A DNA stretch of 64,000 nt, taken from assembly GCF_011045215.1 (NCBI RefSeq), contig NZ_CP049201.1; one strand, 5' to 3'. Positions 34,358-54,248 of the stretch are shown here, in pieces (position 1 is the first letter of the stretch; each line of letters starts with the position of its first letter). The translations under genes and the position numbers were made by a program. The notes under the pieces are model-generated. The model had not been told where the DNA came from, searched no databases, and worked only from the letters and a program-made list of their open reading frames with translations. This DNA is from Escherichia coli. Its GTDB lineage: Bacteria; Pseudomonadota; Gammaproteobacteria; Enterobacterales; Enterobacteriaceae.

Positions 34358-34436
34358 AGTCATATCTCCAGGTAAAAAAGGCCCCTCCCAACACATGGGA
34401 CAAAATGAAAGGAGGAGCCTCGGAAAATACTTTTAA

Positions 34437-48134: not shown

Positions 48135-48237
48135 TCGAAAGTGTTCAGCCAGCCCCCTGCATCCAGCAGGGGGCTGTAATAAGCATTTTTGTACCGGATA
48201 AAAAGCGGCGATATTGCCGCTACTGAATGAGGTGATT

Positions 48238-49482
48238 ATGGCGTTACCTGCGGAAAGCCTGATTGCGTATACCCTGGAAAAAATGAAGCACCGTATGACC
48301 ACCGGAGCCCGGAAGGAGGAGGGGCGAATACGCAGCGGACTGTTGTTCACCGGCAATGTGCACGATGCCATTCCGCGTCGTCTGTTGCTGGATACGCGTC
48401 TTTCACCGCTGGACAAGATGGCATGGATGATGATCCGGCTGTATGCGCAGAATAATGAGGGGGCCATTTTTCCTACTTACGATGAACTGCAACTGCAGCT
48501 GGCATCGCCGGGAAAGGGAAAAGCTTCCAGAGAAACCGTCAGCCGGGTATTGCTGATGTTGCGGATCACGGGCTGGCTGAGCCTGTGTAAACGGGTACGT
48601 GATGATAAAGGCCGGGTTCGGGGAAACATTTACGCCCAGCATGACGAGCCCCTGACGTTCTGCGATGCAGAGGCGATGGATCCGCGTTATCTGGATATAG
48701 TGGCAGAAGCCTGTATGAGCCGGAACCGGACCATCAGTCAGACGGCACGGGATATTCTTTGTGAAATAAAAAATGATCCGGGAATGCGTCACTATCACAG
48801 CCATATCAGTCAGCTGGAAGCCCGGATAGGAAGTGCCCAGACACCGGGGCAGATGGCTGCCCGTCAGCGGGTGACAGAGGACAGAATGCGGCCGGGTTCG
48901 GAAACCGAACCAGTGGTGAGAACACTGAGTTCGGCACCGGAAAAGCTGAGTTCGGAAACCGAACCGGGTAAAAAAATGGGGCAAAAAAGACAGAGTTCGG
49001 ATCCCGAACCATCAGGAAAATCAGCAGGTTATCACAGAGTCCGGGAACCGAACCATTACGTACGTAATATCACACACAGTGTGATTAAAAACACGTACGT
49101 ACTGCCGGCGTCGCTGACGGGGCAAATCAGGGAGGAAGATGCCATCATGCTGACTAGTCAGTTGCAGGCGTTGCCGGAAGCGCTGGCACAGGGGGTGCTG
49201 GAAAGCCTGTCAGGGATGCTGGGCAGTCAGTCACTGCAGAACCCGGTGGGCTGGCTGCTTGCAGTGCTGAAGCGTGCCCGGGAGGGAAATTTTTATCCAC
49301 CGAAACAGAAACAGCGCGTCGCTGCATCAGCCACCATACAGGCGGGAGCGGGAGGGCGCACCACTTCGCAGCCTGTTGTCACCCGGAAACGTACAGAACC
49401 CATTTCAGCAGAACGTCTGAGTGGCATTGTGGCAGGACTACGGGCCTCCCTTCGCAACCGTCCTGCGATGAGAGCCCGGTGA
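48238..49482 (+). CDS. Island replication-protein-like gene (resembles the SPI-7 STY4528-type family)
   Basis: ATG 48238 preceded by gaggtga; ~414 aa; immediately followed by the iteron array; family assignment from memory, unverified. Confidence 0.6.
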   Translation: MALPAESLIAYTLEKMKHRMTTGARKEEGRIRSGLLFTGNVHDAIPRRLLLDTRLSPLDKMAWMMIRLYAQNNEGAIFPTYDELQLQLASPGKGKASRETVSRVLLMLRITGWLSLCKRVRDDKGRVRGNIYAQHDEPLTFCDAEAMDPRYLDIVAEACMSRNRTISQTARDILCEIKNDPGMRHYHSHISQLEARIGSAQTPGQMAARQRVTEDRMRPGSETEPVVRTLSSAPEKLSSETEPGKKMGQKRQSSDPEPSGKSAGYHRVREPNHYVRNITHSVIKNTYVLPASLTGQIREEDAIMLTSQLQALPEALAQGVLESLSGMLGSQSLQNPVGWLLAVLKRAREGNFYPPKQKQRVAASATIQAGAGGRTTSQPVVTRKRTEPISAERLSGIVAGLRASLRNRPAMRAR

Positions 49483-49506
49483 TGGCGTTGTGATTCACGT
49501 TCACAG

Positions 49507-50076
49507 AGAGCAAAAATCAACCAGTGCTGCCAGTGGCAGCATAGAGCAAAAATTAGCCAGTGCTGCTCGGGGCAGCATAGAGCAAAAATTAGCCAGTGCT
49601 GCCCGGGGCAGCATAGAGCAAAAATCAGCCAGTGCTGCCCGGGGCAGCATAGAGCAAAAATCAGCCAGTGCTGCCCGGAGCAGCATAGAGCAAAAATTAG
49701 CCAGTGCTGCCCGGGGCAGCATAGAGCAAAAATTAAGCAGTGCTGCCCGGGGCAGCATAGAGCAAAAATTAGCCAGTGCTGCCCGGGGCAGCATAGAGCA
49801 AAAATCAGCCAGTGCTGCCCGGGGCAGCATAGAGCAAAAATTAAGCAGTGCTGCCCGGGGCAGCATAGAGCAAAAATTAGCCAGTGCTGCCCGGGGCAGC
49901 ATAGAGCAAAAATCAGCCAGTGCTGCCCGGGGCAGCATAGAGCAAAAATCAGCCAGTACTGCCCGGAGCAGCATAGAGGAAAAATTAGTCAGTGCTGCCC
50001 GGGGCAGCATAGAGCAAAAATTAGGCAGTGCAGCCCGGGACAGCATAGAGTGAAAATTAGCCAGTGCTGCCAGTGT
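49507..50076. repeat. Tandem array of ~15 direct 36-bp repeats, each containing the 17-bp perfect palindrome tgctgcccggggcagca (iteron-like; candidate origin or centromere)
   Basis: Unit agagcaaaaat(t/c)agccagtgctgcccggggcagcat repeated head-to-tail with few substitutions; first and last units degenerate. Confidence 0.9.
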
Positions 50077-50354
50077 CACCAAAGAACAAAAATTATGCTG
50101 CGTCAGCAGCATGGAAGGCGGCGGCACTGAATATCCTGAAACATCTGACGGTAAACCGCCGAAGCCCGGCGTCAGCCGGAAACGTCCTGACAGGATGCAG
50201 TGCTCTCCCCGGCCCTGCCAGACCCTGTTTGTTTCAGGAAAAAGCCTGTGTCACATAAAAGAACCGGAGTACAGAGGTAAAACAGAATACTTGCCGCCGT
50301 TTTTTCCGTCAGTATACTTTTTCGTGCTGAAATTCTGGCTAAGGAAAGATTTTT

Positions 50355-51101
50355 ATGACAAATATTAAAATTCTGGCATTCAGTGTGCTGGCAGCCTTTT
50401 CAGTGGGTGCCGCGCATGCGGAAAGTACGCTGACAGTGGGGGCCGGGGTCGGCGTTGTTGAACAATCCTATAAAGGGTATGACGCAAAGGCTTACCTGAT
50501 CCCTGCGGTTTCTTATGACAGTGATTATTTCTGGTTCCGGGGGCTGGGCGGGGGCTTTTATCTGTGGAATGACAGTGCGGATACGCTTTCTGTGACGGCA
50601 TACTGGGCACCGATGTATTTTAAACCGGATGACAGTAATGACCATCAGTTACGTCTGCTGGATGAGCGTAAAAGCACACTGATGGCGGGGATATCCTGGT
50701 CTCATAATACGCCATATGGTTTCCTGCGCACGGGGCTTGCTGCGGATGTACTGGATAACAGTAATGGTGTTGTTGGTGATGTGGCGTGGTTATACCGTTA
50801 TGTGAATGGTGGATTCACCCTGACACCGGGGATTGGTGTGGAGTGGAGCAGCCAGAAACAGAACGACTATTATTATGGCGTATCGCGTCGTGAATCTGCG
50901 CGCAGCGGTCTGGAGCGGTATAAAGCGGATAATGGCTGGTCACCTTACCTTGAAATCAGTGCAAATTACACCTTTGCCGGCAACTGGGGGATCTACGGAA
51001 CCGCACGTTACAGCCGCTTATCTGATGAAGTTAAAAACTCTCCCATGGTGGATAAGTCATGGGATGGACTGTTTTCCACCGGGATCACTTATCGTTTCTG
51101 A
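50355..51101 (+). CDS. MipA/OmpV-family outer membrane protein
   Basis: Signal peptide MTNIKILAFSVLAAFSVGAAHA, beta-barrel-like alternating pattern, C-terminal ITYRF; promoter-like ttgccg-N16-tatact upstream. Confidence 0.7.
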   Translation: MTNIKILAFSVLAAFSVGAAHAESTLTVGAGVGVVEQSYKGYDAKAYLIPAVSYDSDYFWFRGLGGGFYLWNDSADTLSVTAYWAPMYFKPDDSNDHQLRLLDERKSTLMAGISWSHNTPYGFLRTGLAADVLDNSNGVVGDVAWLYRYVNGGFTLTPGIGVEWSSQKQNDYYYGVSRRESARSGLERYKADNGWSPYLEISANYTFAGNWGIYGTARYSRLSDEVKNSPMVDKSWDGLFSTGITYRF

Positions 51102-51265
51102 TATCGGTATGATCTGATGCTCACCGGTGCCGGATCATGGGCACCGGTGTACTGAACTTCCCTTTCTTCCCCATTTTTCTGTGGCCTGAATCTGGTTTTC
51201 TGTTGTTCCTTCTGCGCTTCGTCCTGACGATCTCACTTTATCCCTGATTGTTATAAGGAACTGAT

Positions 51266-51964
51266 ATGAGTGAAGATAAACTGAACCAGAAAGATGTCCG
51301 GGCCGGCGCATTGCAGTCCTCGCTGTCCATTCTGTTACATACCCATTATGCCATTCGTCTTTGGGAAGGACGTTTACCCGGACGAAAGCCCGGGAATATG
51401 CCCTGGATTATGAGTATGCCGCAGGCAATAAAACGTGCCGGGGGGATTTACCGGGATTCCCTGGCGGATAATCCCTATGCCGATGAAGCGATGTGGAAGG
51501 TGGAAAATGCAATTAATGCTGCCAGTGAAAAAGTACATGCTCTGGTTGGCTGGCTGGAGCAGGTTCTGTGTGCCGTGCCGGCGAATATTACCATGACTGA
51601 TGTTGTATCCCGTTCTCCATTAAATATTGGGGTTTACAGTAGTTCTCCGCTGGGGTATCGCTGTGTCTGGCTGCTTGTGGGATATGATCAGATGGCTCTG
51701 AAAGCGTTTCAGGCATCCCACTTTGGCCTGATTTCCCGGCAGAAACGGGACGAGTTACTCTCACATGGCGGGTATCTTATCCGGAAAATTTACGGCATTT
51801 TAAGGGGTTATTATGCCATCCCTGTCACACGACAGGATCTTGAAGAAAAAACACCGGCGGGAGAACAGGCGATGGCACGCCTGGGGCTCCCTGATGCTGA
51901 GATTATGAATGGGCAGTTGCGATCATCATTTTCTCCTCCGCTGAAGAAAAAGAAGAATAAATAG
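51266..51964 (+). CDS. Hypothetical ICE-associated protein (232 aa)
   Basis: ORF directly upstream of topB. Confidence 0.55.
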   Translation: MSEDKLNQKDVRAGALQSSLSILLHTHYAIRLWEGRLPGRKPGNMPWIMSMPQAIKRAGGIYRDSLADNPYADEAMWKVENAINAASEKVHALVGWLEQVLCAVPANITMTDVVSRSPLNIGVYSSSPLGYRCVWLLVGYDQMALKAFQASHFGLISRQKRDELLSHGGYLIRKIYGILRGYYAIPVTRQDLEEKTPAGEQAMARLGLPDAEIMNGQLRSSFSPPLKKKKNK

Positions 51965-53984: not shown

Positions 53985-54220
53985 TCTTAATTTCTCCCTG
54001 TTCAGGATCGGGTAGTGTGGTTAAGCTTTGATGTATACCCCCGTTATCAGCGGGAGGCTGGCTCAACGAAAACACAACGGCGTTCAGTCAGCTACTGATA
54101 CCACAACCGGCCATCGCACATCCTGTCGGGTTGTAAGGCGCATGCCCTCCGTGAAAAACGCGCCGGGATTTATCCCCGGAGACAAGTGAGATAACCACCG
54201 GGCTGGTACCCCCCTGTAAC

Positions 54221-54248
54221 GGCGCTGTATTTGCAGCGCCGTTTTTTA
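54221..54248 (+). terminator. Rho-independent terminator-like hairpin
   Basis: ggcgctg-tatttg-cagcgcc followed by gtttttt. Confidence 0.6.

Follow-up and report, generated by a model that had tools for sequence, protein, structure and literature searches.

A second mipA gene as probable host-benefiting cargo of one sublineage of SPI-7-type ICEs in Escherichia coli

The window (the whole 64,000-nt stretch of E. coli DNA that was analysed) includes an SPI-7-type ICE adjoining cadC, and a mipA gene was found in this element, flanked by the Rep/iteron array on one side and the AcaB-like/topB genes on the other (Table 1). We consider that this gene is probably (at a rough probability of 0.6) a functional, horizontally acquired second mipA, which is carried as lineage-specific cargo by one SPI-7-type ICE sublineage and benefits the host. 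Its insertion at this position dates to the ancestor of one rep clade. The gene is an ordinary representative of the known MipA/OmpV family within a known type of element.

Table 1. Positions of the features at the island mipA locus in the window.
Feature	Position	Strand	Evidence or remark
Rep gene, STY4528 family	48214/48238-49482		NCBIfam STY4528_fam, E = 5e-121
Iteron array, 36-nt unit, 16.4 copies	49507-50095	.	Tandem Repeats Finder; follows the Rep gene
Palindrome ATGCTGC-GTCA-GCAGCAT, first stem of the plasmid-type element	50096-50113	.	Unchanged in 8 islands; covariation
Conserved structured non-coding element, ~140 nt, candidate single-strand priming site (G-site-like)	50096-50235	.	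Plasmid homology, folding
Recombinant (mosaic) tract: promoter region and 5' two-thirds of mipA, divergent allele	50234-50770	+	Identity pattern, dS
Sigma-70-like promoter candidate: -35 TTGCCG, 16-nt spacer, -10 TATACT	50291-50318	+	Scan; conserved in 8 islands
Ribosome-binding site AAGGAA, 8 nt before ATG	50341-50346	+	Sequence
mipA coding sequence	50355-51101	+	248 aa; ORF listing, Pfam, K-12 alignment, AlphaFold2, Foldseek
mipA signal peptide codons (predicted)	50355-50420	+	
Mature barrel codons of mipA	50421-51098	+	C-terminal ...ITYRF
Putative 3' stem-loop of the mipA transcript (stem 10 bp, loop 8 nt, U-tract absent)	51122-51149	+	Inverted-repeat search, covariation
PFL_4669/AcaB-family gene	51266-51964	+	Pfam AcaB 4e-75; NCBIfam ICE_PFL4669 4e-68

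The preliminary description of this DNA had taken the gene for one encoding a MipA/OmpV-type outer-membrane protein, and the protein analyses agreed with it. The product matched the Pfam MipA profile over its full length (PF06629; residues 28-248 against positions 1-221 of 221, E = 2.2e-51, 175.6 bits with a cut-off of 24.2). Compared with the MipA of E. coli K-12 (b1782), it showed 67% identity and 81% similarity with zero gaps, both proteins being 248 aa long. The signal-peptide layout was the same in the two proteins, the N-terminus MTNIKILAFSVLAAFSVGAAHA|ES, a predicted Sec-type signal peptide, being aligned with that of K-12 MipA, and so was the C-terminal pattern ...Y(K/R)F. The terminal Phe of the island protein is the C-terminal aromatic residue typical of an outer-membrane barrel. 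In the AlphaFold2 model, the island MipA formed an all-beta barrel of 11-12 strands (mean pLDDT 85.3, pTM 0.79), and disorder or low confidence was limited to residues 1-23. The best matches in the PDB by Foldseek were the outer-membrane barrels Tsx, OmpG, OmpA, and OmpW, with E values of 1e-6 to 1e-4. The lack of a signal peptide or of a predicted barrel, which would have refuted the preliminary description, was thus not observed. Moreover, all 58 columns that are invariant across the mobile and chromosomal MipA sequences were kept in the island protein. In strain 8178 the start codon of mipA is ATA, so expression of the island gene is not certain in every carrier. These genes already bear the RefSeq label 'MipA/OmpV family protein'.

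With respect to OmpV, the island protein scored 73.4 bits against the NCBIfam OmpV equivalog (NF045789), which is under the cut-off of 400; therefore, it is not an OmpV orthologue. Vibrio OmpV and the MipA of Pseudomonas aeruginosa (mipBA operon) belong to the same Pfam family and have the same barrel fold, and they are the members that experiments have linked to the sensing of cationic peptides (PMC10936184; PMC12012098). Nevertheless, unlike Vibrio ompV and P. aeruginosa mipA, the island gene does not adjoin a two-component system, mipB or virK.

The gene was present variably at an otherwise conserved position of the ICE backbone. The preliminary description had placed it after the iteron array as island cargo, and both statements held when related islands were compared at this site: the gene was absent from four related islands (L003, L004, L005, and L006), in which the iterons are followed directly by the PFL_4669/AcaB-family gene, and present in one sublineage. 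In the related islands of E. coli (L005 and L006), Chimaeribacter, and Kluyvera, the Rep gene, the iterons, and the PFL_4669 gene were found with nothing of mipA between them. The backbone gene order around the site was unchanged in the sister island L005. A deletion derivative, L022, retained only the last ~15 mipA codons and the hairpin after the stop codon, with an intact AcaB-like gene. The right edge of the insertion is approximate (~51150-51180), because the alignment to the islands without mipA is weak there.

Approximately 36 (36-37) of the 5,426 complete E. coli genomes carried the island mipA. A STY4528-type rep gene was found in 133 E. coli genomes, of which 37 had an island rep at least 90% identical and ~96 had no island mipA; within this rep clade of 37, the gene was intact in ~36. 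The word cargo thus means here a gene that is fixed in one sublineage, not a sporadic one. The census across genera covered E. coli genomes, plasmids, and a few contigs, and the search of genome contigs with the AcaB-like protein gave two loci.

The chromosomal mipA was matched in 5,425 of the 5,426 E. coli genomes. The chromosomal copies retain the yeaG-mipA-(yeaE)-yeaD-gapA neighborhood, whereas the island copy is on a mobile element, sits between ICE replication genes, and falls outside the chromosomal clade. The two are alike in that DNA homology with K-12 mipA reaches 43 nt upstream of the gene, into the leader and the -10 region. However, the K-12 gene has a canonical terminator and the island gene a stem-loop without U residues.

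In a neighbor-joining tree, the mobile mipA sequences were placed outside the chromosomal clade, which tracked the genera; the chromosomal context was verified for two tree members, P0016 and P0017. The earlier view that MipA proteins are chromosomal is right only in broad terms: the island copy is part of a separate, mobile clade, other members of which reside on plasmids or elsewhere in accessory DNA. The mobile copies (on plasmid A of E. coli C5, a plasmid of Citrobacter sp. TSA-1, and an IncFII contig of Salmonella Javiana, or linked to a fimbrial operon) showed 73-79% protein identity to the island MipA. They have the leader in common with it, the -35/-10 region in two cases, and the 3' hairpin in two copies; they differ from it in their neighbors (rck/cptA, chaperone-usher fimbriae, autotransporters) and their terminators. 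Homology with the plasmid and other accessory copies begins between 50276 and 50328, and it ends at the stop codon for L013, L016, L017, and L029 (plasmid and E. coli chromosomal copies) or at ~51130, the hairpin edge, for L027 and L030. These limits indicate that the mipA unit moves independently.

The mobile copies have surface or envelope genes as neighbors, as seen at a handful of loci. The Salmonella Javiana contig carried two mipA copies with rck and cptA as neighbors, and other copies were found near a CS6-like chaperone-usher operon, near MrpH-like adhesin genes and DsbA, near an AraC-family regulator and a SPATE autotransporter, or near a trimeric autotransporter adhesin; one copy adjoined a Thoeris defence system. 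We regard it as a rather unlikely proposal that the mobile clade is a horizontally spreading envelope determinant which makes the cell more or less susceptible to serum or to cationic antimicrobials such as polymyxins, chlorhexidine, and host peptides. Such a role would account for its travel with rck, cptA, and adhesin operons and for the selection on the ICE.

The island mipA is under purifying selection, and its alleles have been exchanged by recombination. Among the island alleles, dN/dS was 0.08-0.12, and dS was 0.5-0.8 for mipA versus 0.10-0.14 for rep. The mosaic tract showed 68-88% identity to the other group A islands, whereas its flanks showed 90-100%.

A sigma-70-like promoter upstream of mipA had been proposed before. 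The site is present and agrees with the consensus at 9 of 12 positions. The scan found 3 such sites in 2 kb versus 1.8 ± 1.2 in shuffled sequences, so that the motif match by itself is at chance level. The candidate is rather made plausible by comparison: in K-12 it aligned with TTGGGT-N17-TAAACT ahead of mipA, in Salmonella and C. koseri with TACACT, and it was kept in plasmid copies of mipA. Downstream of it, TAAGGAA was kept across most of the mobile mipA leaders and all three chromosomal ones. An 85-aa ORF spanning the intergenic stretch 50111-50368 was ruled out, its frame being broken by 1-nt indels among the islands.

The perfect 10-bp hairpin reported after the stop codon was also recovered, one base lower (51122-51149) than the earlier position of 51123-51150. 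This inverted repeat, CACCGGTGCC-N8-GGCACCGGTG, was matched in none of 100 shuffles; however, short-loop hairpins with perfect stems of 10-12 bp are not rare in the ICE part of the window (26 kb), where four others were found. The hairpin is kept in 8 islands, and in L007 a C-G pair of its stem has become U-A through a compensatory change. Homologous hairpins in the non-ICE copies L027 and L030 showed double-sided changes and G·U wobbles on the + strand, and in the alignment with these copies 96% of the cells were paired, which 0 of 500 shuffles attained. Covariation with G·U wobbles fits a putative stem-loop at the 3' end of the mRNA. A canonical Rho-independent terminator was ruled out, since no T-run follows the stem and the terminator scan was silent. 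An ICE-specific DNA-binding palindrome was disfavored, since the non-ICE homologues pair via G·U wobbles that are possible on the sense strand only.

The position of the gene allows another reading, in which the insertion acts in cis: the mipA promoter and a leaky hairpin would feed the AcaB-like/topB operon, or the plasmid-type element described below would aid replication, and mipA would be a passenger. A gap of 164 nt separates mipA from the AcaB-like gene downstream on the same strand, the mipA stem-loop lacks a U-tract, the promoter scan found no promoter-like site on the + strand between 51102 and 51265, and the plasmid-type element and mipA are restricted to the same island clade. However, the protein sequence itself is under purifying selection, the AcaB-like gene is still intact in L022 after the loss of the promoter and coding region, and the mipA unit is also conserved where there is no AcaB-like gene, in unrelated contexts. 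We therefore judge an effect in cis to be unlikely.

MipA is the partner of the lytic transglycosylase MltA, and in the closely related island L001 the annotated transfer genes include one for a lytic-transglycosylase-domain protein. The island MipA might thus serve conjugation, either as an outer-membrane scaffold that recruits a peptidoglycan synthase and a lytic transglycosylase so that the wall is opened for the T4SS/pilus, or by stabilizing mating pairs. This is quite improbable, because most of the E. coli genomes with the family rep gene (~96/133) do without the island mipA, the backbone gene order of L005 around the site is the same without it, L022 has deleted it, and the mipA unit is also found on non-ICE plasmids and in pathogenicity-island-like regions. 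Moreover, the transglycosylase of the island is presumably of the SLT type and not of the MltA type.

A role in surface variation or defence was weighed as well. A variant barrel could shift the susceptibility to phages, colicins or contact-dependent toxins, act as a decoy or in exclusion, and owe its mosaic allele to diversifying pressure. The replacement of the 5' two-thirds of mipA by a divergent allele between flanks of 90-100% identity, and the mobile copy beside the Thoeris system, would be in keeping with this. However, no hypervariability or loop-focused diversifying selection was seen in the mean entropy of the predicted loops (loops versus strands, 0.56 versus 0.41, similar to 0.68 versus 0.62 for the chromosomal orthologues), the loops being assigned from the strand order of the model and published surface-display sites (PMC9728377) rather than from a computed topology. 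The dN/dS was ~0.1, and an extra copy cannot abolish a receptor that is still encoded by the chromosome. To our knowledge, no phage or colicin uses MipA, and we give this reading little credence. That mipA is a decaying and functionless hitch-hiker is very improbable indeed: the one deletion derivative and the one ATA start codon would fit decay, but the gene is intact in nearly all clade members, its dN/dS is ~0.1 at substantial divergence, and the family-invariant residues are kept (58/58).

If the island mipA is a host-benefiting second copy, as we favor, its transcription would be driven by its own sigma-70 promoter, derived from the ancestral mipA locus (-10 at 50313-50318), with a leader of ~30 nt. 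The mRNA would end at the 3' stem-loop or gain stability from it, and for want of a U-tract in this stem-loop, the AcaB-like gene may receive some read-through. Sec would export the protein and BAM would insert it into the outer membrane, where it may then play a role like that of MipA, as an envelope scaffold or as a barrel that binds cationic compounds or affects their entry, and such a role would benefit the host and not the transfer machinery. MipA was reportedly described by Vollmer in 1999 as an MltA-PBP1B envelope scaffold. To judge from the 67% gapless identity to this characterised protein, the island MipA may bind MltA and PBP1B. Nearly every E. coli already has a chromosomal mipA, so it is not obvious what a 67%-identical copy would add.

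Several reports bear on the trait that such a copy may confer. The MipA of P. aeruginosa binds polymyxins (PMC10936184). In Proteus, chlorhexidine tolerance was associated with the loss of mipA (PMC12304739); since it is the loss and not the gain that raises tolerance, an extra copy could even sensitize the cell. The carRS-ompV-virK operon of Vibrio cholerae reportedly senses antimicrobial peptides (PMC12012098). MipA is also reported to be a protective ETEC antigen (PMC4526226), and vaccine coverage could therefore be affected by a second copy that has diverged. ICEPca4 of Pectobacterium, from a different host, is a published precedent for an ICE with such a gene, a mipA/ompV family protein being listed in passing among its cargo (PMC9373382). 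If an extra MipA alters the envelope, an ICE present in ~0.7% of complete E. coli genomes would be spreading the trait, as would its relatives on plasmids. The trait could be vesiculation, serum resistance, or a changed tolerance or sensitivity towards polymyxins and cationic biocides. In practical terms, the island mipA is a clean marker for one island sublineage.

The palindrome directly after the last iteron had been suggested as an additional protein-binding site. It is present there, but it is not isolated, being the first stem of a ~140-nt element. Its stem covaries in the plasmid homologues (ATGCCGC/GCGGCAT and ATGCGC/GCGCAT). Folding of the element gave z = -3.1 on either strand; consensus folding found one covarying pair, and the remaining helices are invariant in the alignment and hence uninformative. 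A search of 49400-51400 against Rfam gave nothing meaningful, and BLAST of a 156-nt element sequence against phages gave no match. A search of the available literature returned nothing on an IncFII G-site and nothing relevant on STY4528 or SPI-7 iterons.

The element is missing from the islands without mipA, and the two are confined to one island clade. Homologues were found in 3,611 of 72,556 plasmids, the plasmids with a homologue being conjugative and mainly IncF. In the IncFII loci, they lie 720-850 nt past the repA stop codon and ~360-490 nt past oriR, as located by the DnaA box. The nearest known counterpart of the element may be the primase G-site (G4-type single-strand initiation signal) downstream of oriR in the IncFII plasmids R1 and R100, and leading-strand synthesis in R1 presumably starts ~400 bp beyond oriR, where the homologues sit. 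The element itself is rich in stem-loops. A G4-type site is defined by primase- and SSB-dependent priming on single-stranded DNA and by stem-loops with a 3' CTG; on the + strand of the window, a CTG follows the second hairpin at a distance of 7 nt on its 3' side. Unlike the IncFII G-site, the element has an inverted orientation relative to rep in the island, and the CTG is missing from two plasmid homologues. The complementary-strand origin of phage G4 was rejected as a homologue, a comparison by eye showing a similar style of GC hairpins only and no sequence similarity. The element is put forward as a candidate G-site-like single-strand priming site, and for the replication of these islands it is arguably a more interesting lead than mipA.

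The window is E. coli chromosome, its cadBC region (34400-38400) matching thousands of E. coli genomes at 99% identity, and from about 38 kb on it is occupied by a SPI-7-type integrative conjugative element (ICE). In the closest relative, RM11911, the RefSeq gene order runs ParA, SPI-7-type DnaB, ParB, DUF2786, DUF2857, Ead-like, STY4528-family Rep, MipA/OmpV, PFL_4669, topoisomerase III, STY4534, SSB, PilL, and TraD; an integrase fragment is annotated at its cadC/island junction. The usual E. coli gene at the cadC site is pheU. ARAGORN detected no tRNA gene in window 1-64000, although the island abuts cadC. The iteron array gives rise to long repeat ORFs on both strands (49490-50127), and the equivalent ORFs of related islands (L001 12102-12836; L009 1588-2067) are named 'hypothetical protein' or 'saposin' in RefSeq; such coding calls over the iterons are almost certainly artefacts.

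Features around mipA in the window, and settings of its relatives elsewhere
Feature	Coordinates	Description
Rep gene	end 49482	
Tandem array (iterons)	49507-50095	36-nt unit, 16.4 copies
Palindrome	50096-50113	ATGCTGC-GTCA-GCAGCAT
Plasmid-type element	50096-50235	non-coding, ~140 nt; begins with the palindrome
Promoter candidate	50291-50318	TTGCCG-N16-TATACT
mipA	50355-51101	
3' hairpin	51122-51149	perfect, 10 bp
AcaB/PFL_4669-family gene	51266-51964	
topB	start 51975	
Mobile mipA, Salmonella Javiana IncFII-type contig	L016 1-9921	two copies flanking rck (complement resistance), beside cptA (LPS phosphoethanolamine transferase) and ISNCY/IS481-type transposases
Mobile mipA, metagenome contig		immediately after CS6-like chaperone-usher operon
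Mobile mipA, S. enterica contig		preceded by MrpH-like adhesin genes, DsbA, and GerE-family regulator; followed by Thoeris system
Mobile mipA, E. coli chromosome		AraC-family regulator and SPATE autotransporter
Mobile mipA, E. coli contig		trimeric autotransporter adhesin
mipA, another metagenome contig		ICE context identical in kind to the window

The mipA product matched the Pfam MipA profile over its whole length (E = 2e-51) and shares with K-12 MipA its 248-aa length and N-terminal layout, the two aligning without a gap over 248/248 residues (67% identity, 81% similarity). Its N-terminus, which aligns with that of K-12 MipA, comprises a basic residue, a hydrophobic core, and AHA followed by E, and its C-terminal residue is Phe. 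The AlphaFold2 model (52 homologues) is a barrel with a pLDDT of 85.3 and disorder limited to residues 1-23, resembling Tsx, OmpG, OmpA, and OmpW among PDB structures. A predicted barrel and a Sec-like N-terminus are therefore both present, and the preliminary description of a MipA/OmpV-type outer-membrane protein gene is upheld. In the comparison with chromosomal mipA and ompV that it proposed, the NCBIfam OmpV equivalog cut-off was missed (73 bits vs 400), so by this score the product is a MipA-type member and not an OmpV orthologue. RefSeq already labels such genes 'MipA/OmpV family protein'.

We next consider whether mipA is island cargo, as had been proposed. In two E. coli sister islands, with rep about 80% (L005) and about 70% (L006) identical, the PFL_4669 gene comes within 95-250 nt of the iterons and mipA is missing, and the Chimaeribacter and Kluyvera islands likewise pass from iterons to the PFL_4669 gene. 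Among 5,426 complete E. coli genomes, an STY4528-type rep gene was found in 133, with at least 90% identity in 37 of them, and island-type mipA in 36-37. Since these carriers match the 37 genomes with the closest rep, mipA seems to have entered a single rep clade through one acquisition by its ancestor, and to have been kept since. In the AH19B041 island (L022 6070-6130), a deletion that starts at the -35 hexamer and reaches about codon 233 fuses that hexamer directly to the last ~15 codons of mipA, leaving the hairpin and the AcaB-like gene intact. The cargo proposal thus holds, and mipA is, as judged from the mipA-less islands and this one loss, dispensable for the ICE, yet rarely lost. The AH19B041 genome has a second island with intact mipA. 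In E. coli 8178 (L007 2225-2227), mipA starts with ATA rather than ATG, which may reduce translation; match coordinates and identity repeat in 3/3 assemblies of this strain, and ATA was read in one of them.

The best database matches to the window protein (73-94% identity) form two groups, both outside the chromosomal MipA clade. The latter follows genera (Kosakonia, Leclercia, Kluyvera, Salmonella/E. coli, Citrobacter) at 63-69% identity, and the yeaG-mipA-yeaD-gapA neighbourhood was confirmed for the Salmonella and C. koseri matches. MipA-family genes are scarce on plasmids (39/72,556 records, several being mis-filed chromosomes), and the two closest plasmid matches (77-79%) lie within the identity range of the mobile groups. 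The view that MipA proteins are chromosomal holds only broadly, as mobile copies occur on plasmids and in accessory regions too. DNA homology of the mobile copies begins between 50276 and 50328 and stops at the stop codon in some and at ~51130 in others, so the moving unit is essentially the promoter/leader and mipA, plus the 3' hairpin in part of the clade.

Among the eight island alleles, the dN/dS of mipA was 0.08-0.12 at a dS of 0.5-0.8, far above the dS of the adjacent rep gene (0.10-0.14). In a sliding comparison with other islands, 50234-50770, which covers the promoter and the 5' two-thirds of mipA, was 68-88% identical, whereas the flanks on both sides were 90-100% identical. This segment is, on that pattern, an allelic replacement through recombination, and it explains the high dS of mipA. 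No concentration of variation was found in the predicted surface loops. The AcaB-like gene (51370-51960) has two deeply divergent alleles among islands with near-identical rep and mipA flanks (nucleotide identity 40-60%, dN ~0.37) that share conserved 5' and 3' ends; this split suggests swapped regulator specificity types.

The sigma70-like promoter sequence proposed for mipA is present, but its consensus match alone is at chance level (three such sites in 2 kb vs 1.8 expected). Nevertheless, 8/8 islands retain the two hexamers together with their 16-nt spacing. Homology with K-12 mipA starts 43 nt before the start codon, and the counterpart of the candidate -10 TATACT is TAAACT in K-12 and TACACT in both Salmonella and C. 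koseri, followed by a conserved leader to TAAGGAA-N8-ATG. Most simply, the candidate would be the promoter of ancestral mipA, having travelled with the gene.

The perfect hairpin after the stop codon was also found, one base lower than first placed; shuffled sequence gave 0 occurrences, and the ICE-occupied portion of the window holds four other comparable perfect hairpins. It is kept in 8/8 islands, with a compensatory C-G to U-A change in one, and two non-ICE mipA copies have homologous hairpins at equal distance from the stop codon with differing inner stems and G·U wobbles. Overall, 96% of cells were paired and three pairs were altered on both sides; the pairing and covariation scores were each reached by 0/500 shuffles. 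Because G·U wobbles are tolerated on the sense strand only, the hairpin fits a 3'-end stem-loop acting in the mipA transcript. No U-tract follows it, and a canonical intrinsic terminator was rejected; some transcription may run through the hairpin into the AcaB-like gene. At the equivalent site, other mobile mipA copies have unrelated canonical terminators. Further perfect 10-11-bp short-loop hairpins lie just after the Ead-like gene (48150-48176) and downstream of topB (54218-54243), and stem-loops behind genes seem to recur throughout the ICE replication module.

Conserved family residues, purifying selection, and independent mobility suggest that mipA probably encodes a working MipA-type barrel benefiting the host, and most sister islands lack mipA, which speaks against a role in transfer. 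MipA has a peptidoglycan scaffold role, which is one candidate activity; interaction with cationic compounds is the other. P. aeruginosa MipA binds polymyxin (PMC10936184), mipA loss in Proteus is associated with chlorhexidine tolerance (PMC12304739), and the V. cholerae ompV operon is likewise linked to cationic compounds (PMC12012098). The neighbours of mobile copies (rck, cptA, adhesins) point loosely to envelope and host-interaction traits. A Pectobacterium ICE likewise carries a mipA/ompV gene, listed in passing (PMC9373382); no functional study of an ICE-borne mipA was found in the literature searched.

More unusual than mipA itself is the plasmid-type element, of which the palindrome noted just after the iterons proved to be a part. 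The element is 90-100% conserved among mipA-carrying islands and absent from mipA-less ones. A 156-nt query had homologues in 3,611 of 72,556 plasmids. The majority are conjugative and come from E. coli, Salmonella, and Shigella, and the matched stretch is almost never annotated. Its conserved blocks are the palindrome, GGAAGGCGGC, AAACCGCCGAAGCCCGGCGT(A/C)AGCCGG, and CCCTGCCAGACC. The palindrome stem covaries (ATGCTGC/GCAGCAT, ATGCCGC/GCGGCAT, ATGCGC/GCGCAT); the remaining helices are invariant and thus uninformative. The element matched nothing in Rfam and showed no resemblance to the phage G4 origin. In IncFII replicons, its distance past the repA stop is 720-850 nt, and the oriR DnaA box TTATCCACA lies 176-184 nt past repA, which places the element ~360-490 nt (about 400 bp) beyond the 188-bp oriR. 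At that position, the primase 'G-site', at which R1 leading-strand synthesis starts, was reportedly mapped by Masai and Arai in 1989 and Bernander et al. in 1992. A primase G-site is thus our lead for the identity of the element. Its orientation relative to rep is inverted in the island; extension of a primer made there on the window + strand would proceed leftward and cross the iterons. An IncI-type resistance plasmid of S. Typhi, pSTY-blaCTX-M-65 (L018 3676-4097), carries a 420-bp island fragment that runs from the last iterons across the plasmid-type element into the initial 80 nt of mipA, which shows past recombination between the mipA-carrying ICE lineage and plasmids.
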